A DNA stretch of 64,000 bases from Escherichia phage vB_EcoM-S1P5QW, in the sequence record OL956808.1. The stretch is one strand, 5' to 3'. The notes beneath the pieces are model-generated. The model did no database searches, was not told the DNA's origin, and saw only the letters and a program-made list of their open reading frames with translations. Of the stretch, positions 8,631-58,282 are shown in pieces (within the stretch, counting starts at the first letter, position 1; each line of letters begins with the position of its first letter). The translations under genes were made by a program, and so were the position numbers.

Positions 8631-8662
8631 CCCTATCAAAACAAAACCAAATGGAAATCAAA

Positions 8663-8896
8663 ATGAAAACTTTCAAAGAGTTTATCGCTGAATCTTCTGA
8701 TGTAAAAGTTGAGTTTATTTACACCGGCAAGAAAGATAAAATGGGTGAAATGCCTCATGGAGTTCTTCGTGATGCATTAGATAATTTCGGTCAACTCGCC
8801 GCAGAAGATTACGGTGATAAAATTGTTGTTACTGGTCCTGCTGCAGTTATTGAAAAATGGGCAGCAGAAAATAAATCAATTTTTCGTAAAAAATAA
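8663..8896 (+). CDS. internal (capsid-packaged) protein with capsid targeting sequence
   Basis: N-terminus MKTFKEFIAE matches T4 internal-protein CTS (MKTYQEFIAE); gene flanked by near-identical promoter/stem-loop repeats. Confidence 0.7.
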   Translation: MKTFKEFIAESSDVKVEFIYTGKKDKMGEMPHGVLRDALDNFGQLAAEDYGDKIVVTGPAAVIEKWAAENKSIFRKK

Positions 8897-9912: not shown

Positions 9913-9985
9913 TGGGAATTAGCCAAGTTGGTAAGGCACTGGATTTTGATTCCAGGATGCAAAGGTTCGAGTCCTTTATTCCCAG
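9913..9985 (+). tRNA. tRNA-Gln (anticodon UUG)
   Basis: cloverleaf folded by eye: acceptor TGGGAAT/ATTCCCA, anticodon loop TTTTGAT, T-arm GGTTCGAGTCC; no encoded CCA. Confidence 0.8.
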
Positions 9986-9986
9986 C

Positions 9987-10073
9987 GCGAGAATGGTCAA
10001 ATTGGTAAAGGCACAGCACTTAAAATGCTGCGGAATGATTTCCTTGTGGGTTCGAGTCCCACTTCTCGCACCA
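9987..10073 (+). tRNA. tRNA-Leu (anticodon UAA)
   Basis: acceptor GCGAGAA/TTCTCGC, anticodon loop CTTAAAA, long variable arm, encoded CCA. Confidence 0.8.
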
Positions 10074-10078
10074 AATTT

Positions 10079-10152
<74 letters not shown>

Positions 10153-10156
10153 ATTT

Positions 10157-10807
10157 ATGTCTCGTCGTGAGACGCTCAGTTCTTTATTAGGGACTGATAT
10201 GCATTTTTATCTTTATAAAATAACAAATAAAATTAATAATAAAATTTATATTGGTGTGCATTCTACCGAAAATTTAGATGATGGATATATGGGTTCTGGT
10301 AAATTATTAAAAAGAGCCCAAGATAAATATGGTATAGAAAATTTTTCTAAAGAAATATTAGAGTATTTTGATGATAAAGAATCTATGCTTGAAGCCGAGA
10401 AAAATATTGTCACAGAAGAGTTTTTAAATAGACCAGATGTGTATAATTTAAAACTTGGAGGTGAAGGTGGATGGGATCATATAAATAATTATCCTATGAC
10501 AGATCAGCAACGCGAATTAATTTCATTGGGTGTTAAAAAGGCACATTCTAACGGAAAATTAAAAGGATGGTCTTCAAATGGATTAATGAAAAATGGCTTT
10601 GCTGGTAAAACTCATTCTCAAGAAGCTAAACGTAAAATAGCAAAAGCAAACGAAGCAAAAGTTTCTGCGAATGAAAGAAAAAGAAGAATAGAAATTTCTA
10701 AATTATATGATTTTTCTAAGCGGGGTGAATTATCTAAATATGCTAAGCATATTGGCGTAAGTCATACTCAAGCAAAAAGAATTCTAAATCAAATTAACAA
10801 TATATAA
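10157..10807 (+). mobile_element. segB: GIY-YIG homing endonuclease (SegB-like) inserted in tRNA cluster
   Basis: 216-aa ORF with GIY-YIG motifs (FYLYKI...KIYIGVHS) and repeated NUMOD3-like motifs; lies between tRNA-Gly and tRNA-Ser. Confidence 0.8.
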
Positions 10808-10813
10808 ATATTT

Positions 10814-10903
10814 GGAGGCGTGGCAGAGTGGTTTAATGCACCGGTCTTGAAAACCGGCAGTCGCTCCGGCGACTCATAGGTTCAAATCCTATCGCCTCCG
10901 CCA
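10814..10903 (+). tRNA. tRNA-Ser (anticodon UGA)
   Basis: acceptor GGAGGCG/CGCCTCC, anticodon loop CTTGAAA, long variable arm, CCA. Confidence 0.8.
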
Positions 10904-10908
10904 GTTTT

Positions 10909-10985
10909 GCTGATTTAGCTCAGTAGGTAGAGCAACTCACTTGTAATGAGAAGGTCGGCGGTTCGATTCCGTCAATCAGCACCAA
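10909..10985 (+). tRNA. tRNA-Thr (anticodon UGU)
   Basis: acceptor GCTGATT/AATCAGC, anticodon loop CTTGTAA, CCA. Confidence 0.8.
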
Positions 10986-10986
10986 G

Positions 10987-11061
10987 GCCCTGTAGCTGGA
11001 AGGTTCAAGCAAGCGACTCATAATCGCCAGATGGTGGTTCAATTCCACCCAGGGCCACCAA
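10987..11061 (+). tRNA. tRNA with CAU anticodon (Ile by analogy with T4 tRNA-Ile, or Met)
   Basis: acceptor GGCCCTG/CAGGGCC, anticodon loop CTCATAA; D-arm atypical. Confidence 0.65.
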
Positions 11062-11070
11062 ATTAATTTG

Positions 11071-11157
11071 GGGAGTTATCCCGTAGAGGTAGCGGTGTGG
11101 ACTGTAAATCCATTGTCATTGCGACTCGGGTGGTTCGACTCCATCACTCCCCACCAA
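11071..11157 (+). tRNA. tRNA-Tyr (anticodon GUA), type II
   Basis: acceptor GGGGAGT/ACTCCCC, anticodon loop CTGTAAA, long variable arm resembling bacterial tRNA-Tyr. Confidence 0.65.
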
Positions 11158-11160
11158 TTT

Positions 11161-11235
11161 GGATGTGTAGCTCAATGGCAGAGCGATCGCCTGTTAAGCG
11201 ATTGGTTATAGGTTCGAATCCTATCACTTCCGCCA
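11161..11235 (+). tRNA. tRNA-Asn (anticodon GUU)
   Basis: D-arm GCTCAATGGCAGAGC, anticodon stem ATCGC/GCGAT with loop CTGTTAA, T-arm ATAGGTTCGAATCCTAT, CCA; one acceptor mismatch. Confidence 0.65.
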
Positions 11236-11349
11236 AATTTGTGACAACTGTCACATTAATATCTACTTGACGCGATTATCGGGGTTGAACTGATCACTCT
11301 TCTCTTAATTTCGTGTGAAGACATCTTGATTGTTGGAGTAGGTATTAAT

Positions 11350-11425
11350 GTGGCCGTAGTTCAGTTGGTAGAACTCGAGATTGTGATTCTCGTAGTCATG
11401 GGTTCGACTCCCATCGGTCACCCCA
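11350..11425 (+). tRNA. tRNA-His (anticodon GUG)
   Basis: anticodon loop TTGTGAT, discriminator C73 then CCA, T-arm ATGGGTTCGACTCCCAT. Confidence 0.7.
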
Positions 11426-11429
11426 ATTA

Positions 11430-11505
11430 CGGGGCATAGCTCAGAAGGAAGAGCAAGGACCTTCTAAGTCCTGGGTCGTAGGTTCGATCCCTACTGCCTC
11501 GACCA
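11430..11505 (+). tRNA. tRNA-Arg (anticodon UCU)
   Basis: anticodon loop CTTCTAA, T-arm GTAGGTTCGATCCCTAC, CCA encoded. Confidence 0.8.
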
Positions 11506-16285: not shown

Positions 16286-16816
<531 letters not shown>

Positions 16817-16910: not shown

Positions 16911-17384
16911 ATGAAAACATATCAAGAATTTATTACTGAAGCAGCTATTAATTCTCAAATTATTGCTGAATCTTTTACTGATCTTTTGAAATTTAAAAAA
17001 GGACAGAAAATCACTGCTGTACTGGATGATGGTACAGAAGTTGAGATGGATGTACAGGGATATAATTATGCAGTAGATGGAAAACTGTATAATAAATCTC
17101 ATGCTAAATTTGATTCATTTGACGACTTTGTTAATACAGTTGAAGATGAAAAAACTCGTCGATCCATTGCAACAGGTGATGCTAAGGTTCTTATGGCACA
17201 TGGTCATGAACGTATTCGCGCTAAACAGAATAAAATGGGTGAAGATAATTTTGCATTAGTTGGTTATCAATCTGGTAAACAAACTTATGGCTATCAACGT
17301 ACTGCTACCATGTATAACAAAAATGGTAAAATTGCCTTTGTGAATAGTAAAGGTTCTATTCAGTACGTTAAATCGTTCAAATAA
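16911..17384 (+). CDS. internal protein with capsid targeting sequence
   Basis: N-terminus MKTYQEFITEA matches T4 internal-protein CTS; 157 aa. Confidence 0.7.
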   Translation: MKTYQEFITEAAINSQIIAESFTDLLKFKKGQKITAVLDDGTEVEMDVQGYNYAVDGKLYNKSHAKFDSFDDFVNTVEDEKTRRSIATGDAKVLMAHGHERIRAKQNKMGEDNFALVGYQSGKQTYGYQRTATMYNKNGKIAFVNSKGSIQYVKSFK

Positions 17385-17537
17385 GCAAATAAGAAATATG
17401 GGAACAACCTGGACCTCATGATTCTGTGAGGGATTCCCGCCAACCTGTAATAAGGTCGAGCCCAAGTGCGGTAATGGGTAAATACAGAAATGGACAATTC
17501 ATGCGCCACGGAATGGCCCAAACCTAGAGAGAATAAA

Positions 17538-18077
17538 ATGAGAACATTTTTAACTGGTCCTTATCTATCCCTGATGAATGCTTTTACACACCATTCTGAT
17601 GCTAGAGTAGAAGAAATTTGTAAAAACGAATATATCCCGCCATTTGAAGAATTACTTAAACAGTATTGCACACTTCGACTAGATGGTGGACGTCAATCCG
17701 GTAAATCAATTGCTGTGACTAACTTTGCTGCTAATTGGTTGTATGATGGCGGAACAGTTATCGTTCTTTCTAATACTTCAGCTTACGCTAAAATTTCTGC
17801 AAATAACATTAAAAAGGAATTTTCGCGTTATTCTAATGATGATATACGTTTTCGTTTATTTACTGATTCTGTGCGCAGTTTTATTGGTAATAAAGGAAGC
17901 AAGTTCAGAGGTTTATCGCTTTCGCGAATTTTGTATATAATTGATGAGCCTGTCAAATCTCCTGATATGGATAAGATTTATAGTGTCCATATTGAGACTG
18001 TACACTACTGCTGTAATAGTAAATGTTGTATTGGTGGTATTACTCGTCCACAGTTTTTCGTAATCGGAATGCAATGA
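17538..18077 (+). CDS. small P-loop NTPase-like protein
   Basis: 179 aa from ATG 17538 (RBS GAGAGAA); Walker-A-like GGRQSGKS and Walker-B-like ILYIIDE. Confidence 0.5.
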   Translation: MRTFLTGPYLSLMNAFTHHSDARVEEICKNEYIPPFEELLKQYCTLRLDGGRQSGKSIAVTNFAANWLYDGGTVIVLSNTSAYAKISANNIKKEFSRYSNDDIRFRLFTDSVRSFIGNKGSKFRGLSLSRILYIIDEPVKSPDMDKIYSVHIETVHYCCNSKCCIGGITRPQFFVIGMQ

Positions 18078-18409: not shown

Positions 18410-18772
18410 ATGAAAGCATATCAAATTCTTGAAGGCACACATAAAGGTACTATTTATTTTGAAGATGGTATTCAAGCACGAATTATTGTCTCTAAAACCT
18501 TTAAAGAGGACTCTTTTGTAGACCCAGAAATTTTCTACGGTTTGCATGCCCGTGAAATTGAAATTGAGCCACAGCCTACAGTTAAAATTGAAGGTGGTCA
18601 ACACCTGAACGTTAACGTTCTGCGTCGTGAAACTCTGGAAGATGCAGTTAAGCATCCGGAAAAATATCCGCAGCTGACCATCCGTGTATCCGGTTATGCA
18701 GTTCGCTTTAACTCTCTGACTCCGGAACAGCAGCGCGACGTTATCGCTCGTACCTTTACTGAGAGTCTGTAA
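18410..18772 (+). CDS. autonomous glycyl radical cofactor (GrcA/YfiD-like; T4 Y06I homolog)
   Basis: C-terminal ~60 aa ([39 protein letters not shown]...) carry the glycyl-radical RVSGY motif and look essentially identical to E. coli GrcA. Confidence 0.85.
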
Positions 18773-18993
18773 TGGCAAAGATAATTATTGAAGGTTCTAA
18801 AGATGTGCTAAATGCTTTCGCAGAATGGTTTAGTAATTCAGGCGAACAGCAATTTAATGAAGCCTGGAATATGGGTGATATTGATGGAATTTATCCTACG
18901 ACAGAAATTTCTGTTCAAGGATATGGCATTCATGAACCTATTCGTTTAGTTGAATATGATTTATGCACTGGTGAGGAAGTCAAATATGATTGA
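18772..18993 (+). CDS. hypothetical protein
   Basis: 73-aa ORF, ATGA overlap with upstream gene. Confidence 0.5.
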   Translation: MAKIIIEGSKDVLNAFAEWFSNSGEQQFNEAWNMGDIDGIYPTTEISVQGYGIHEPIRLVEYDLCTGEEVKYD

Positions 18994-19589: not shown

Positions 19590-20051
19590 ATGACTATCAA
19601 TACAGAAGTTTTTATCCGTCGAAATAAGCTTCGTCGTCACTTTGAGTCGGAGTTTCGTCAAATTAACAATGAGATTCGTGAGGCATCAAAAGCAGCAGGG
19701 GTCTCATCGTTTCATCTAAAATATTCTCAGCATCTTCTTGATCGTGCAATTCAACGGGAGATTGATGAGACATATGTTTTTGAATTATTCCATAAAATAA
19801 AAGACCATGTTTTAGAAGTTAATGAATTCCTGAGTATGCCTCCGCGTCCTGACATTGACGAGGATTTTATTGATGGGGTTGAATATCGTCCTGGACGTTT
19901 AGAAATCACAGATGGAAATCTTTGGCTTGGATTTACGGTTTGTAAGCCTAATGAGAAGTTCAAAAACCCGTCACTTCAATGCAGGATGGCAATTATCAAC
20001 AATCGTCGTTTACCAGGAAAGGCTTCTAAAGCAGTAATTAAAACTCAATGA
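19590..20051 (+). CDS. regB: site-specific RNA endonuclease RegB
   Basis: 153 aa, N-terminus MTINTEVFIRRNKLRRHF as recalled for T4 RegB; RBS GAGGAGA. Confidence 0.85.
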   Translation: MTINTEVFIRRNKLRRHFESEFRQINNEIREASKAAGVSSFHLKYSQHLLDRAIQREIDETYVFELFHKIKDHVLEVNEFLSMPPRPDIDEDFIDGVEYRPGRLEITDGNLWLGFTVCKPNEKFKNPSLQCRMAIINNRRLPGKASKAVIKTQ

Positions 20052-35717: not shown

Positions 35718-36191
35718 ATGTTATTGACTGGCAAATTATATAAAGAAGAAAAACAGAAATTTTATGATGCACAAAACGGTAAATGCTTAATTTGCCAACG
35801 AGAACTAAATCCTGATGTTCAAGCTAATCACCTCGACCATGACCATGAATTAAATGGACCAAAAGCAGGAAAGGTACGTGGATTGCTTTGTAATCTCTGC
35901 AATGCCGCAGAAGGTCAAATGAAGCACAAATTTAATCGTTCTGGCTTAAAGGGACAAGGTGTTGATTATCTTGAATGGTTAGAAAATTTACTTACTTATT
36001 TAAAATCCGATTACACCCAAAATAATATTCACCCTAACTTTGTTGGAGATAAAACAAAGGAATTTTCTCGTTTAGGAAAAGAGGAAATGATGGCTGAGAT
36101 GCTTCAAAGAGGATTTGAATATAATGAATCTGACACCAAAACACAGTTAATAGCTTCATTTAAGAAGCAGCTTAGAAAGAGTTTAAAATGA
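35718..36191 (+). CDS. 49: recombination endonuclease VII (Holliday junction resolvase)
   Basis: 157 aa; matches recalled T4 endo VII including zinc-binding CLICQ...HDHE...CNLCN. Confidence 0.92.
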   Translation: MLLTGKLYKEEKQKFYDAQNGKCLICQRELNPDVQANHLDHDHELNGPKAGKVRGLLCNLCNAAEGQMKHKFNRSGLKGQGVDYLEWLENLLTYLKSDYTQNNIHPNFVGDKTKEFSRLGKEEMMAEMLQRGFEYNESDTKTQLIASFKKQLRKSLK

Positions 36192-38005
36192 CAATTGAAA
36201 AAGAAATTGAAGGATTGATTCATAAAACTAATAAAGACCTTTTAAACGAGAATGCTAATAAAGATTCTCGTGTTTTTCCAACTCAACGGGACCTTATGGC
36301 TGGTATTGTGTCTAAACACATTGCCAAAAATATGGTCCCGTCTTTTATTATGAAAGCGCATGAAAGCGGAATTATTCATTTCCATGATATTGATTATTCC
36401 CCTGCTCTTCCATTTACTAATTGTTGTTTAGTAGATTTAAAAGGAATGCTTGAGAACGGATTTAAGCTTGGTAATGCACAGATTGAAACTCCTAAATCAA
36501 TTGGAGTTGCTACTGCAATTATGGCACAAATTACTGCACAGGTTGCTTCCCATCAATACGGCGGAACGACTTTTGCTAATGTAGATAAAGTACTTTCTCC
36601 TTATGTTAAACGCACCTATGCAAAACATATTGAGGATGCAGAAAAATGGCAAATCGCTGATGCGTTGAATTATGCTCAATCTAAAACAGAAAAAGACGTA
36701 TACGATGCATTCCAAGCTTATGAATATGAAGTAAATACTCTCTTTAGTTCAAACGGGCAAACACCTTTTGTAACAATTACATTTGGTACAGGAACTGACT
36801 GGACTGAACGAATGATTCAGAAAGCAATTCTGAAAAATCGTATTAAAGGTCTCGGTCGTGATGGGATAACTCCTATTTTTCCTAAGCTTGTTATGTTCGT
36901 CGAAGAAGGCGTTAATCTTTACAAAGACGATCCGAATTACGACATTAAGCAACTTGCTTTAGAGTGTGCAAGCAAAAGGATGTATCCTGATATTATTTCA
37001 GCTAAGAATAATAAAGCTATCACTGGTTCATCTGTTCCTGTTTCTCCAATGGGTTGCCGTAGTTTCTTGAGCGTATGGAAAGATTCGACTGGTAATGAAA
37101 TTCTTGATGGACGTAATAATCTTGGTGTTGTAACACTGAATCTTCCTCGCATTGCATTAGATTCTTATATTGGAACACAATTTAACGAACAGAAATTTGT
37201 TGAATTATTCAATGAACGAATGGATTTATGTTTTGAAGCTTTGATGTGTAGAATTAGTTCCTTAAAAGGAGTTAAAGCGACTGTTGCTCCTATTCTTTAC
37301 CAAGAAGGTGCATTCGGGGTTCGTCTTAAACCTGATGACGATATAATTGAGTTATTTAAAAACGGCAGAAGTTCAGTGTCTTTAGGATACATAGGTATTC
37401 ATGAATTGAATATTCTTGTTGGTCGTGACATTGGACAAGAAATTTTAACTAAAATGAATGCTCATCTTAAACAGTGGACTGAAAGAACCGGATTTGCTTT
37501 TAGTTTATATTCGACTCCTGCTGAAAACCTTTGTTATCGCTTCTGTAAACTCGATACAGAAAAATATGGAAGCGTAAAAGATGTTACCGATAAAGGTTGG
37601 TACACTAACAGTTTCCATGTTTCAGTAGAAGAAAATATTACTCCGTTTGAAAAGATTTCTCGTGAAGCGCCATATCATTTCATTGCGACAGGTGGTCACA
37701 TTTCTTATGTTGAACTTCCTGATATGAAAAATAACTTAAAAGGTCTTGAGGCCGTGTGGGATTATGCTGCACAGCATTTAGATTATTTTGGTGTTAATAT
37801 GCCGGTAGATAAATGTTTTACATGTGGAAGTACCCATGAAATGACTCCTACTGAAAACGGATTTGTTTGTTCTATTTGTGGAGAAACTGATCCTAAAAAG
37901 ATGAACACAATAAGAAGAACATGTGGTTATTTGGGAAATCCGAACGAACGCGGATTTAATCTCGGTAAAAATAAAGAAATCATGCATAGGGTTAAACACC
38001 AATGA
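36188..38005 (+). CDS. nrdD: anaerobic ribonucleoside-triphosphate reductase NrdD (uninterrupted)
   Basis: 605 aa; C-terminal glycyl radical region and CxxC pairs (CFTCGSTHEMTPTENGFVCSICG); no intron. Confidence 0.9.
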   Translation: MTIEKEIEGLIHKTNKDLLNENANKDSRVFPTQRDLMAGIVSKHIAKNMVPSFIMKAHESGIIHFHDIDYSPALPFTNCCLVDLKGMLENGFKLGNAQIETPKSIGVATAIMAQITAQVASHQYGGTTFANVDKVLSPYVKRTYAKHIEDAEKWQIADALNYAQSKTEKDVYDAFQAYEYEVNTLFSSNGQTPFVTITFGTGTDWTERMIQKAILKNRIKGLGRDGITPIFPKLVMFVEEGVNLYKDDPNYDIKQLALECASKRMYPDIISAKNNKAITGSSVPVSPMGCRSFLSVWKDSTGNEILDGRNNLGVVTLNLPRIALDSYIGTQFNEQKFVELFNERMDLCFEALMCRISSLKGVKATVAPILYQEGAFGVRLKPDDDIIELFKNGRSSVSLGYIGIHELNILVGRDIGQEILTKMNAHLKQWTERTGFAFSLYSTPAENLCYRFCKLDTEKYGSVKDVTDKGWYTNSFHVSVEENITPFEKISREAPYHFIATGGHISYVELPDMKNNLKGLEAVWDYAAQHLDYFGVNMPVDKCFTCGSTHEMTPTENGFVCSICGETDPKKMNTIRRTCGYLGNPNERGFNLGKNKEIMHRVKHQ

Positions 38006-38472
38006 ATTACGATAGATTTTATCCCTGTGATTTTGTGAATGGCCCTGGATGCAGGGTCGTTCTTTTCGTTACAGGTTGTTTGCATAAATGCGAAGGGTGT
38101 TATAATAAATCAACATGGAATGCTAGAAATGGTGCTCCATTCACTGGTGAAACACTAGAACAATTAATTGAATGTTTGAATAATGATTATATAGAAGGAT
38201 TAACTATAACCGGAGGAGACCCTCTTTATCCTGATAACAGAGACGTGATTCACTCTGTGGTTCAAACTATTAAAAATCTTTATCCCAATAAAAGCATTTG
38301 GTTGTGGACAGGATATAAGTTTGAAGATATTAAACAACTAGAAATGCTTAAATATGTTGATGTTATTATTGATGGGAAGTATGAGAAAAATCTTCCGACC
38401 AAAAAGCTGTGGCGAGGATCAGATAATCAGCGGCTTTGGTCAAATACCGATGGGGTGTGGAAACATGATTAA
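38002..38472 (+). CDS. nrdG: anaerobic RNR activating protein NrdG (radical SAM)
   Basis: 156 aa; Cys cluster CLHKCEGC. Confidence 0.85.
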   Translation: MNYDRFYPCDFVNGPGCRVVLFVTGCLHKCEGCYNKSTWNARNGAPFTGETLEQLIECLNNDYIEGLTITGGDPLYPDNRDVIHSVVQTIKNLYPNKSIWLWTGYKFEDIKQLEMLKYVDVIIDGKYEKNLPTKKLWRGSDNQRLWSNTDGVWKHD

Positions 38473-42507: not shown

Positions 42508-43710
42508 ATGAAAGTATGTATTTTTATGGCTCGAGGTCTTGAAGGTTGTGGTGTAACAAAATTCTCACTCGAGCAACGTGATTGGTTTATTAAAAATAGT
42601 CATGAAGTGACTTTGGTTTATGCTAAAGATAAATCATTTACTCGTAATTGCGCGCATGATTATAAATCATTTTCAATTCCGGTTTTATTGGCAAAAGAAT
42701 ATGATAAAACACTTAAGCTGGTAAATGATTGTGATATTCTAATTATCAATTCAGTTCCTGCTACTTCGGTTGAAGAAGACACGATTAATAACTATAAAAA
42801 AATTATTGATAACATTAAACCTTCTGTTCGTGTTGTAGTTTATCAACATGACCATTCTTCTCTTTCTTTGCGTCGAAATTTGGGATTAGAAGAAACTGTT
42901 CGTCGAGCTGATGTTATTTTTAGCCATTCTGATAATGGTGATTTTAATAAAGTTCTGATGAAAGAGTGGTATCCAGAAACTGTTTCTCTGTTTGATGATA
43001 TTGAAGAAGCACCGACCGTATATAACTTTCAGCCTCCTATGGATATTGCGAAGGTTCGATCAACCTACTGGAAAGATGTTTCTGAAATTAACATGAATAT
43101 CAACCGTTGGATTGGTCGTACGACTACATGGAAAGGTTTTTATCAGATGTTTGATTTTCACGAAAAACATCTTAAACCTGCAGGACTAAGTACTATTATG
43201 GAAGGTCTGGAACGTTCTCCAGCGTTCATTCCTATTAAAGAAAAAGGAATTCCATACGAGTATTATCGTCTTCATCAAGTAGACCAAATTAAAATTGCTC
43301 CTAATTTGCCAACGCAAATTCTTGACCGTTATGTAAATAGCGAAATGCTTGAACGTATGAGTAAATCCGGATTTGGTTATCAGTTGAGTAAGTTGGATAA
43401 AAAATATCTACAGCGCTCTTTAGAATATACTCATCTCGAGCTTGGTGCATGTGGAACAATTCCGGTATTTTGGAAATCTACTGGCGAAAATTTAAAATTC
43501 CGTGTTGATAATACTCCTTTGACCTCGCATGATAGCGGTATCATTTGGTTTGATGAAAATGATATGGAATCAACATTTGAACGTATTAAAGAACTGTCAT
43601 CTGACCGAGCTCTTTATGACCGTGAGCGAGAAAAAGCATATGAATTTTTGTATCAGCATCAAGATTCAAGCTTCTGCTTTAAAGAACAGTTTGACATTAT
43701 TACAAAATAA
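42508..43710 (+). CDS. a-gt: DNA alpha-glucosyltransferase
   Basis: 400 aa; close to recalled T4 alpha-gt (CIFMARGLEGCGVTKFSLEQRDWFIKN...). Confidence 0.9.
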   Translation: MKVCIFMARGLEGCGVTKFSLEQRDWFIKNSHEVTLVYAKDKSFTRNCAHDYKSFSIPVLLAKEYDKTLKLVNDCDILIINSVPATSVEEDTINNYKKIIDNIKPSVRVVVYQHDHSSLSLRRNLGLEETVRRADVIFSHSDNGDFNKVLMKEWYPETVSLFDDIEEAPTVYNFQPPMDIAKVRSTYWKDVSEINMNINRWIGRTTTWKGFYQMFDFHEKHLKPAGLSTIMEGLERSPAFIPIKEKGIPYEYYRLHQVDQIKIAPNLPTQILDRYVNSEMLERMSKSGFGYQLSKLDKKYLQRSLEYTHLELGACGTIPVFWKSTGENLKFRVDNTPLTSHDSGIIWFDENDMESTFERIKELSSDRALYDREREKAYEFLYQHQDSSFCFKEQFDIITK

Positions 43711-54296: not shown

Positions 54297-54386
54297 TTTA
54301 GAATTCCCTAAAAAAATTTCACAAAACTGTTTACAAGACTGTTCTTCCATGGTACTATACAACTATCAACTACGGAGGAACACAAA
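54297..54386 (+). repeat. promoter/stem-loop cassette (PeSL-like) copy
   Basis: AGAATTCCCTAAAAAAATTTCACAAAACTGTTTACAAGACTGTTCTTCCATGGTACTATACAACTATCAACTACGGAGGAACAC; near-duplicate of 12500-12590 and 28920-28981. Confidence 0.65.
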
Positions 54387-54638
54387 ATGAAAAATATTCA
54401 AACTAATTTTATTCAAAATTTAAAAGTTGTTAACGCAGAAAAAGCTAATAAACTCTTTAAAGTTAAAGAATTTGAAAATGAAGGTAACACTTACGGTATT
54501 ATAGAACAAAATGGAATGGTTACTGGATTAGAAATTTATAATGGTAAAGGAAAATTTCAGTCACAGCCAATTTCTGTTATGGGTGTAAGAAAAGGAATTA
54601 AAACTGAAGATGCTTTAAAGTTATTTGTTAAGTTTTAA
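54387..54638 (+). CDS. hypothetical protein
   Basis: 83 aa downstream of promoter cassette. Confidence 0.55.
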   Translation: MKNIQTNFIQNLKVVNAEKANKLFKVKEFENEGNTYGIIEQNGMVTGLEIYNGKGKFQSQPISVMGVRKGIKTEDALKLFVKF

Positions 54639-54650
54639 GAGGAAATTATT

Positions 54651-55443: not shown

Positions 55444-56184
55444 ATGATTAGTGACTCTATGACAGTTGAAGAAATCCGTCTTCATTTGGGGCTTGCATTA
55501 AAGGAAAAAGATTTCGTAGTTGATAAAACTGGTGTTAAAACTGTTGAAATTATTGGCGCATCATTTGTAGCAGATGAACCCTTTATTTTTGGCGCTCTTA
55601 ATGATGAATACATTCAGCGTGAACTTGAATGGTACAAGTCTCAAAGTCTGTTTGTTAAAGATATTCCAGGTGAAACACCAAAGATTTGGCAGCAGGTAGC
55701 ATCTTCTAAAGGCGAAATTAACTCGAATTATGGTTGGGCTATTTGGTCAGAAGATAACTATGCCCAGTATGATATGTGTTTAGCTGAACTTGGTCAAAAT
55801 CCTGATTCTCGACGTGGTATCATGATTTATACTCGTCCATCTATGCAGTTTGACTATAATAAAGATGGTATGTCAGATTTCATGTGCACGAATACAGTAC
55901 AGTACCTGATTCGTGACAAGAAAGTCAATGCAGTAGTAAGCATGCGCTCAAATGACGTGGTCTTCGGATTCCGTAATGATTATGCATGGCAAAAATACGT
56001 ATTAGATAAATTAGTATCTGATTTGAATGCAGGCGATTCAACTCGTCAGTATAAAGCAGGTTCTATTATATGGAATGTTGGAAGTCTTCATGTATATTCT
56101 CGTCATTTTTACTTGGTTGATCATTGGTGGAATACTGGCGAAACTCATATTGTGAAAAAAGACTATAAAGGTGAGTGGAAATGA
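55444..56184 (+). CDS. 42: dCMP hydroxymethylase gp42
   Basis: 246 aa; thymidylate-synthase-like fold, matches recalled T4 gp42 closely. Confidence 0.92.
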   Translation: MISDSMTVEEIRLHLGLALKEKDFVVDKTGVKTVEIIGASFVADEPFIFGALNDEYIQRELEWYKSQSLFVKDIPGETPKIWQQVASSKGEINSNYGWAIWSEDNYAQYDMCLAELGQNPDSRRGIMIYTRPSMQFDYNKDGMSDFMCTNTVQYLIRDKKVNAVVSMRSNDVVFGFRNDYAWQKYVLDKLVSDLNAGDSTRQYKAGSIIWNVGSLHVYSRHFYLVDHWWNTGETHIVKKDYKGEWK

Positions 56185-57023
56185 TTCAATTCGTAATTCC
56201 AAGTTATCAACGTGTCGGGGCAGTTTCTGCCCTTGATATGTTTCCGACTGATTATGAACCGCATATTGTAGTGCGTGAACACGAAGAAAAAGCTTATTAT
56301 GATGCTTATGGGTCTAGAGCTAAAATTATAACTATTCCTGATGATGTAAACGGAATTGCCGGTACTCGTAAAGCAATTACTGATATGTATGCAGGTCAAC
56401 GAATTTGGATGATTGACGATGATACTACTATTCGTATGAGTTCAATGCGAAAAAGAGATGACCGTCGTTGTGTGGATAAAGTCAATCAATTGACTCATGA
56501 ACAGTTCTATGAATTGATTCAATATGTTGAGGATGCCATGGATTGTGGGTATTATCATGGCCATGCTCGTCTACCTATTTTTAAAATTACTTCATCTTGG
56601 GGCAATTATCGTGAAAATTCATATGGATTCACGAATACATGGTATGACCTCGGAAAACTTACTACAGAACAAATTGGGTATGGAAAAATTGATTTATGCG
56701 AAGATATGTATGCATTTCTCAATTTAATTAGTCAAGGTTATCCGCATTTGGCCTTGTTCAAATATCTGGTTGTATCTGGAAAAGCACAAGCTCCTGGCGG
56801 GTGTAGTTCAATTCGTAGTAATTCTAAACATAATAGAGCGCTTGAGCAAATCAATAGAGAGTTTCCAGAGCAAGCTCGTTGGAAAACTTCTAATATTGAA
56901 AAACGAAAATCGTTGGGTGAAGAAGACGAGCCATTAAAGGTTCTTCGCATGTGTGTTTCACGTAAAGAAAAATCAGAAGCATTTCATAAGTTTAATGCTA
57001 TTCATCCAATAGCAGTTGATTAA
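56175..57023 (+). CDS. DNA glycosyltransferase in the beta-gt locus (GT-A fold with DxD; likely T2/T6-type beta-glucosyl-HMC-alpha-glucosyltransferase)
   Basis: 282 aa with WMIDDDTT DxD motif; unlike the 351-aa T4 beta-gt but in the same position. Confidence 0.6.
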   Translation: MEMIQFVIPSYQRVGAVSALDMFPTDYEPHIVVREHEEKAYYDAYGSRAKIITIPDDVNGIAGTRKAITDMYAGQRIWMIDDDTTIRMSSMRKRDDRRCVDKVNQLTHEQFYELIQYVEDAMDCGYYHGHARLPIFKITSSWGNYRENSYGFTNTWYDLGKLTTEQIGYGKIDLCEDMYAFLNLISQGYPHLALFKYLVVSGKAQAPGGCSSIRSNSKHNRALEQINREFPEQARWKTSNIEKRKSLGEEDEPLKVLRMCVSRKEKSEAFHKFNAIHPIAVD

Positions 57024-57100
57024 TGCCTAAATTTATTGTGTTATAATTACTCTATCTTTAACCAGTGAGGAAAATATAATGATGCCTATGGAAAAAATGA

Positions 57101-58282
57101 ATGTCTATTGCAGATTTAAAATCCCGTTTGATTAAAGCTTCCACTTCTAAAATGACTGCTGAACTGACTACATCTAAATTCTTTAATGAAAAGGATGTAA
57201 TCCGTACAAAAATCCCAATGCTTAATATTGCTATTTCTGGTGCGATTGATGGCGGCATGCAGTCTGGTTTAACTATTTTCGCAGGGCCTTCTAAACACTT
57301 TAAATCAAATATGTCTTTGACTATGGTTGCGGCATATTTGAACAAATATCCTGACGCGGTTTGTCTATTCTATGATAGCGAATTTGGTATTACTCCAGCT
57401 TATTTACGATCCATGGGAGTTGACCCGGAACGAGTAATTCATACGCCAATTCAGTCAGTTGAACAGCTGAAAATTGATATGGTGAACCAGCTTGAAGCTA
57501 TTGAGCGTGGTGAAAAGGTTATTGTATTCATCGACTCAATCGGTAATATGGCTTCTAAGAAAGAAACGGAAGATGCCTTGAATGAAAAATCTGTGGCAGA
57601 TATGACTCGTGCTAAATCACTGAAGTCATTATTCCGTATTGTTACTCCTTATTTTAGCATTAAAAATATTCCATGTGTTGCGGTTAACCATACAATTGAA
57701 ACAATTGAAATGTTTAGTAAAACCGTGATGACAGGTGGTACAGGCGTAATGTATTCGGCTGATACTGTATTCATTATCGGTAAACGCCAGATTAAAGATG
57801 GTTCTGATCTTCAGGGGTATCAATTTGTTCTAAATGTAGAAAAATCTCGTACCGTTAAAGAAAAAAGTAAATTCTTTATTGATGTTAAATTTGACGGTGG
57901 TATCGATCCTTATTCTGGATTGTTAGATATGGCTCTAGAATTAGGATTTGTTGTAAAACCTAAGAATGGTTGGTATGCTCGTGAATTTCTTGACGAAGAA
58001 ACTGGCGAGATGATTCGCGAAGAAAAATCTTGGCGTGCAAAAGATACCAACTGCACTACATTCTGGGGTCCTTTATTTAAGCATCAACCATTCCGAGATG
58101 CTATTAAACGTGCTTATCAGTTAGGTGCTATTGATAGTAATGAAATTGTTGAAGCTGAAGTTGATGAATTGATTAACTCAAAGGTTGAAAAATTTAAATC
58201 TCCAGAAAGTAAAAGTAAATCAGCAGCTGATTTAGAAACTGACCTCGAGCAGTTAAGTGATATGGAAGAATTTAATGAATAA
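57101..58282 (+). CDS. uvsX: RecA-like recombinase UvsX
   Basis: 393 aa; Walker A GPSKHFKS and near-identity to recalled T4 UvsX over most of its length. Confidence 0.95.
   Translation: MSIADLKSRLIKASTSKMTAELTTSKFFNEKDVIRTKIPMLNIAISGAIDGGMQSGLTIFAGPSKHFKSNMSLTMVAAYLNKYPDAVCLFYDSEFGITPAYLRSMGVDPERVIHTPIQSVEQLKIDMVNQLEAIERGEKVIVFIDSIGNMASKKETEDALNEKSVADMTRAKSLKSLFRIVTPYFSIKNIPCVAVNHTIETIEMFSKTVMTGGTGVMYSADTVFIIGKRQIKDGSDLQGYQFVLNVEKSRTVKEKSKFFIDVKFDGGIDPYSGLLDMALELGFVVKPKNGWYAREFLDEETGEMIREEKSWRAKDTNCTTFWGPLFKHQPFRDAIKRAYQLGAIDSNEIVEAEVDELINSKVEKFKSPESKSKSAADLETDLEQLSDMEEFNE

Follow-up and report, generated by a model that had tools for sequence, protein, structure and literature searches.

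A gene most probably encoding a T2/T6-type beta-glucosyl-HMC-alpha-glucosyltransferase in the beta-gt slot of a T-even phage with intron-less nrdD and no denV between e and regB

The beta-glucosyltransferase of phage T4 (beta-gt, 351 aa) belongs to the GT-B type and attaches glucose directly to bare 5-hydroxymethylcytosine (hmC). Phages T2 and T6 are without beta-gt, and their second transferase adds a beta-1,6-linked glucose to alpha-glucosyl-hmC, thus giving gentiobiosyl-hmC, whose share of total hmC is about 5% in T2 and 72% in T6; about 25% remains unglucosylated (PMC6024577, PMC13160076). Deletion of the corresponding gene, ba-gt, from T6 eliminates gentiobiosyl-hmC and preserves alpha-glucosyl-hmC; it also raises the sensitivity of the phage to the Brig1 glycosylase and alters the stripping of glucose by the deglucosylase BapA (PMC11078745, PMC13160076). 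According to reviews, ba-gt is found in every T-even-type phage but T4, so that T4 is the exception (PMC2993671). In a HPLC/MS study of 2026, Tequatroviruses having alpha-gt together with a TAGT gene syntenic with T4 beta-gt were found to contain gentiobiosyl-hmC and no beta-glucosyl-hmC (PMC13390438).

The stretch of DNA analysed here (64 kb, hereafter the window) comes from the genome, about 167 kb in size, of a T-even phage (Tequatrovirus), and all statements on the absence of beta-gt and denV refer to this window. Its orientation is opposite to that of the conventional T4 map, and the + strand successively carries baseplate genes, gene 1, the tRNA cluster, e, regB, nrdD and alpha-gt, followed by 47, 46, 45, 44, 62, 43, imm, 42, uvsX, 40, 41 and 61. 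In the final 24 kb, identity to numerous sequenced phages of the coliphage and Shigella phage groups reaches 97-98% over 95-98% of the length.

Gene 42 (55444-56184, + strand) encodes dCMP hydroxymethylase, the source of the hmC precursor; its product is 96% identical to T4 gp42 and carries the Pfam domain Thymidylat_synt. The next open reading frame was assigned a length of 282 aa in the preliminary description of this DNA. The frame itself is certainly there (56175-57023, + strand, at its maximal extent), but 282 aa are obtained only if counting begins at the upstream GTG at 56175, and translation probably begins at the ATG at 56181, the protein then having 280 aa (ba-gt, or ggt; 56181-57023, + strand). 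This ATG is the counterpart of the annotated ba-gt start in T2, T6 and Kha5h, lies 6 nt downstream of the Shine-Dalgarno-like sequence GGTGA and overlaps the stop codon of gene 42 as ATGA. Because of this overlap, translational coupling of ba-gt with gene 42 is suggested. Directly downstream lies uvsX (57101-58282, + strand; 91% identity to T4 UvsX), and the order gene 42 - ba-gt - uvsX is the same as in T2, T6 and Kha5h. In the blastn alignment the last position homologous to T4 lies at 56166, 18 nt short of the gene 42 end, and the next one at 57113, 6 nt into uvsX. The non-T4 cassette delimited in this way (56167-57112, + strand, 946 bp) takes the place of 1941 bp of T4 DNA, which carry beta-gt and the homing endonuclease gene segA; the latter is absent here. 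One more departure from T4 was registered nearby: a 274-bp insertion between gene 43 and imm.1 (54377-54650), containing an 83-aa ORF (54387-54638; PHROG 18567, function unknown). T2 and Kha5h carry this insertion as well.

Over 280 aa the protein is 99% identical to those of both T2 (AP018813) and T6 (AP018814), aligning without gaps in the first case and with one 1-aa gap in the second. Comparison with the T2 and T6 proteins had been named in the preliminary description as the check on its proposal of a T2/T6-type enzyme, and this high identity, together with the match to PHROG 842 "beta-glucosyl-HMC-alpha-glucosyltransferase" (E = 4e-89), bears the proposal out. The described T2 and T6 enzymes (Q06717 and Q06718 in PMC6024577) also consist of 280 aa (279 in one T6 record), have genes that likewise lie between gene 42 and uvsX and overlap gene 42 in the same way, co-occur with alpha-gt and show only point differences from the protein considered here. 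At the DNA level, at least 474 phage records match the gene with nucleotide identity of at least 90%, each over at least 80% of its length, 367 of them reaching at least 95%, and many of the 474 are annotated as beta-glucosyl-HMC-alpha-glucosyltransferase. Solly, a phage of the collection described in PMC13390438, has a gene with 98.1% identity. The T4 enzyme shares with ba-gt the slot after gene 42, the use of UDP-glucose and the beta linkage introduced into hmC DNA (PMC6024577), but there is no sequence similarity between them, and ba-gt is GT-A-like and extends alpha-glucosyl-hmC. The best BLASTP alignment between the ba-gt protein and T4 beta-gt covered 10 residues with E = 0.28, and a tblastn search of the 64-kb window with the T4 enzyme gave no match, in agreement with the initial statement that the gene following 42 is not T4 beta-gt. 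Based on these data we consider the ORF to be the T2/T6-type beta-glucosyl-HMC-alpha-glucosyltransferase making gentiobiosyl-hmC, with a probability of about 0.95.

Classification of the protein as a GT-A-type glycosyltransferase with a DxD motif (WMIDDDTT) was likewise supported. It matches the Pfam family TAGT (PF20691, TET-associated glycosyltransferase) with 39.4 bits against a cut-off of 27.5, residues 5-209 being aligned with profile positions 2-205 of 205. WMIDDDTT occupies residues 76-83 of the 280-aa protein, and its aspartates D79, D80 and D81 (codons 56415-56423, + strand) are invariant among 10 homologues with identity down to 32%. About 95 residues further on, the same alignment contains the segment "CEDMY", in which E174 is conserved at 90% and D175 is invariant. 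The homologue search returned only 11 proteins, hence the family of ba-gt is narrow, and the alignment of 10 sequences used for structure modelling is shallow. Sequence search of PDB gave no solved relative of ba-gt. A model built from the single sequence was unusable (pLDDT 39), while that based on the 10-sequence alignment reached pLDDT 70 and pTM 0.71, block means being 85-95 for residues 1-80 and 70-79 for residues 81-120. As far as the model can tell, the protein resembles solved GT-A transferases with their single Rossmann-like nucleotide-sugar-binding fold, and the DDD triplet follows the predicted beta-strand 74-77, that is, stands where a DxD motif is expected. By analogy with inverting GT-A enzymes, residues 79-81 would hold a divalent metal and the diphosphate of UDP. 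Since the model is poorly determined in its C-terminal half (pLDDT < 50 at residues 126-151 and 204-212), we can only infer that E174-D175 is a plausible catalytic base.

The TAGT family shares with ba-gt the match along the whole profile, though a distant one (39 bits), the GT-A-like fold and the DxD motif. The difference is that no TET/JBP dioxygenase is involved in the pathway considered here, since gp42 provides hmC through the nucleotide pool, and that the acceptor is a sugar already present on DNA. The breadth of this Pfam family, which spans different hypermodification pathways (PMC8256090), and the use of arabinose by related T4-like phages (PMC6024577) give some ground for thinking that the enzyme transfers another sugar or acts on hmC directly, as some TAGT members do, in which case the modification would not be gentiobiosyl-hmC. 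Such specificity is, however, very improbable for a protein that is 99% identical to its T2 and T6 counterparts, the product of which has been established both genetically and chemically (PMC11078745, PMC13160076, PMC13390438), the more so as alpha-gt, which supplies the acceptor, is encoded in the same phage.

The gene of this DNA alpha-glucosyltransferase is found at 42508-43710 (+ strand; Pfam AGT, E = 1e-236; 91% identity to T4 alpha-gt), and both alpha-gt and gp42 are thus encoded within the window. By analogy with the studied phages, the following succession of events may be proposed for the T2/T6-type enzyme. Cytosine would be replaced by hmC with participation of gp42 among other enzymes; alpha-gt would then add alpha-linked glucose to a part of hmC residues, creating the acceptor for ba-gt, and the latter, as an inverting enzyme, would move a second glucose from host UDP-glucose to the 6-OH of the first one. 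If the chemistry known from the literature applies, the product should be beta-1,6-glucosyl-alpha-glucosyl-hmC, i.e. gentiobiosyl-hmC. As the window contains no beta-gt of the T4 type, hmC beyond the reach of alpha-gt should stay bare, as about 25% of it does in T2 and T6. In the DNA one would then expect alpha-glucosyl-hmC, gentiobiosyl-hmC and unmodified hmC side by side, as in T2 and T6. The different pattern of hmC glycosylation implied by the preliminary description can in this way be specified as the classical T2/T6 one, with alpha-glucosyl-hmC, gentiobiosyl-hmC and about 25% of bare hmC, and its relevance to modification-dependent defences, also pointed out there, has its effect documented in the literature (PMC6024577, PMC11078745, PMC13160076).

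How large the gentiobiosylated fraction is cannot be predicted from the sequence, because the T2 and T6 enzymes are nearly identical and yet produce 5% and 72%, respectively. The low yield in T2, where an enzyme 99% identical to ours leads to only about 5% of gentiobiosyl-hmC (PMC6024577), makes one consider that the orthologue found here is inactive or weak, being in decay or poorly expressed, and that the DNA contains little besides alpha-glucosyl-hmC and bare hmC, much as in T2. Two T6 records show lesions in this gene, either as damage arising in laboratory stocks or as sequencing mistakes. In MH550421 (2138-2980) there is a stop at codon 10 (SY*RV), and ggt is annotated as a protein of 261 aa starting from Met20; in AP018814 (4138-4974) a 3-nt deletion converts WMIDDDTT to WMIDDTT. 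Both lesions may be stock-specific or may represent sequencing errors. In the phage studied here, on the contrary, the ORF is intact, all invariant residues of the family are present, a good ribosome-binding site and the overlap with gene 42 are in place, and hundreds of phages have the gene with 95-99% identity, so that loss or weakness of the enzyme appears unlikely and a functional T2/T6-type transferase remains the preferred reading.

Four residues distinguish the protein from T2 ba-gt (R11 instead of H, H106 instead of R, S184 instead of N and P251 instead of S), and four positions distinguish it from T6 ba-gt of AP018814 (Y40 instead of N, D55 instead of G, DDD instead of DD and S184 instead of N). 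S184 replaces N found in both T2 and T6. It is very improbable that an allele mixing T2-like and T6-like residues, with the addition of S184, leads to a degree of gentiobiosylation that is intermediate or otherwise unusual. If it is nevertheless true that ba-gt alleles, and not expression or alpha-gt, decide between 5% in T2 and 72% in T6, natural mosaics of this kind could be used to map the responsible residues.

Two other loci, nrdD and the interval between e and regB, had been reported to differ from T4. As was stated, nrdD (36188-38005, + strand) is uninterrupted: it is a single ORF of 605 aa with Pfam domains NRDD and Gly_radical, in which the counterparts of the T4 exons are contiguous. 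These exons align to 36188-36723 and 36726-38005, leaving no room for the T4 intron of about 1 kb. Rfam detected no group I intron in the window, all its matches being tRNAs, and the ORF of the T4 nrdD intron had no match in the window either. The nrdD gene of T2 is likewise intron-less and has 97% nucleotide identity to that described here. nrdG directly follows nrdD, without mobC of T4. The set of homing genes missing from this DNA includes mobC (located in T4 between nrdD and nrdG), mobB, segA and the nrdD-intron ORF. The protein encoded by nrdG (38002-38472) shows 80% identity to T4 NrdG; of its surroundings, nrdD is 96-98% identical to T4 in DNA and gp49 is 99% identical in protein sequence.

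The interval where denV would be expected is bounded by e (16322-16816, + strand) on the left and by regB (19590-20051, + strand) on the right. The order of genes here is e, Ip4, vs.8, vs.7, vs.6, vs.5, vs.4, vs.3, regB, whereas T4 has e, ipIII, ipII, denV, vs.8. Thus Ip4 alone (16911-17384, + strand) stands between e and vs.8 in place of ipIII-ipII-denV of T4; it is an internal virion protein of 157 aa with the capsid-targeting start MKTYQEFITE (Pfam DUF7412, E = 6e-96; PHROG 3155 "internal virion protein"). The same arrangement e-Ip4-vs.8 occurs over its entire length in 304 records, among them RB18, AR1, RB27 and RB32 (the last with Ip4 annotated), and T2 shares it with 96% DNA identity. 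No denV was detected between e and regB, just as the preliminary description had it, and the search was extended to the rest of the window, where tblastn with T4 DenV gave nothing at E <= 0.01 over all 64 kb. The complete T2 genome had no match to denV even at E <= 1. The presence of denV varies independently of ba-gt; in phage ES12, for instance, ba-gt is accompanied by a denV allele with 78% identity to that of T4.

Under permissive conditions tblastn aligned 49 aa at 36030-36176 with DenV (41% identity, 30.8 bits), but this segment is part of the dimerisation domain of endonuclease VII (gp49) and does not represent a homologue of denV. The gp49 in question is 99% identical to that of T4 and carries the Pfam domains Endonuclease_7 and Endonuc-dimeris, default BLASTP gave no match, and T4 has the same gp49 beside its own denV; homology is rejected on these grounds. 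The aligned part corresponds to residues 56-101 of T4 endonuclease V, and T4 itself would show the same similarity. Probably, this is a chance likeness of helical segments.

Within the same interval, the N-terminal parts of vs.8 (17426-18077) and vs.5 (18772-18946) are in a frame other than that of the T4 genes. RB32 is annotated with the same shorter vs.8 and with a longer vs.5, and the same longer vs.5 is annotated in T2. Although the N-terminus of vs.8 is out of the T4 frame, its interpretation as a pseudogene was rejected in view of the RB32 annotation and of the 96% DNA identity with T2. The N-terminal changes in both genes look like allele differences rather than pseudogenes.

Some variability was also observed at the opposite side of e. 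The tRNA cluster (9913-11502) gave 10 tRNA matches by Rfam versus 8 tRNAs annotated in T4. It contains a GIY-YIG ORF of 216 aa (10157-10807), which is 83% identical to T4 SegB over the first 117 residues only; in its C-terminal half no similarity to that protein could be detected. The ipI locus, lying between 57B and trna.4, is occupied by a different internal virion protein of 78 aa (8660-8896; MKTFKEFIAE..., PHROG 8111), and no homologue of T4 IPI was found in the window. IPI is an inhibitor of GmrSD-type restriction of glucosylated DNA, and the difference at this locus bears on the plating on GmrSD hosts named in the preliminary description.

The phage is an ordinary T2-like one: presence of ba-gt, continuity of nrdD and lack of denV make up the standard T2/T6-type condition of three well-known polymorphic loci of T-even phages. 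There is no functional connection among the three, which reflect the mosaic nature of T-even genomes and also the fact that T4 is exceptionally rich in homing endonucleases and introns. The ba-gt gene has long been known, the situation is a textbook one, and there is nothing new in biology here. Absence of the v gene is the reason for the classically higher UV sensitivity of T2 compared with T4, and the lack of denV in the phage studied here predicts UV sensitivity of the T2 kind instead of the higher resistance of T4. For the rest, the importance of the finding is confined to annotation: by analogy, the DNA should be of the T2/T6 type and not of the fully glucosylated T4 type, and it is predicted to contain no beta-glucosyl-hmC. 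Such a phage is predicted to be sensitive to defences recognising bare hmC, for instance Brig3 (PMC13160076), and, insofar as the second glucose is attached, partly shielded from Brig1, the glycosylase acting on alpha-glucosyl-hmC (PMC11078745).
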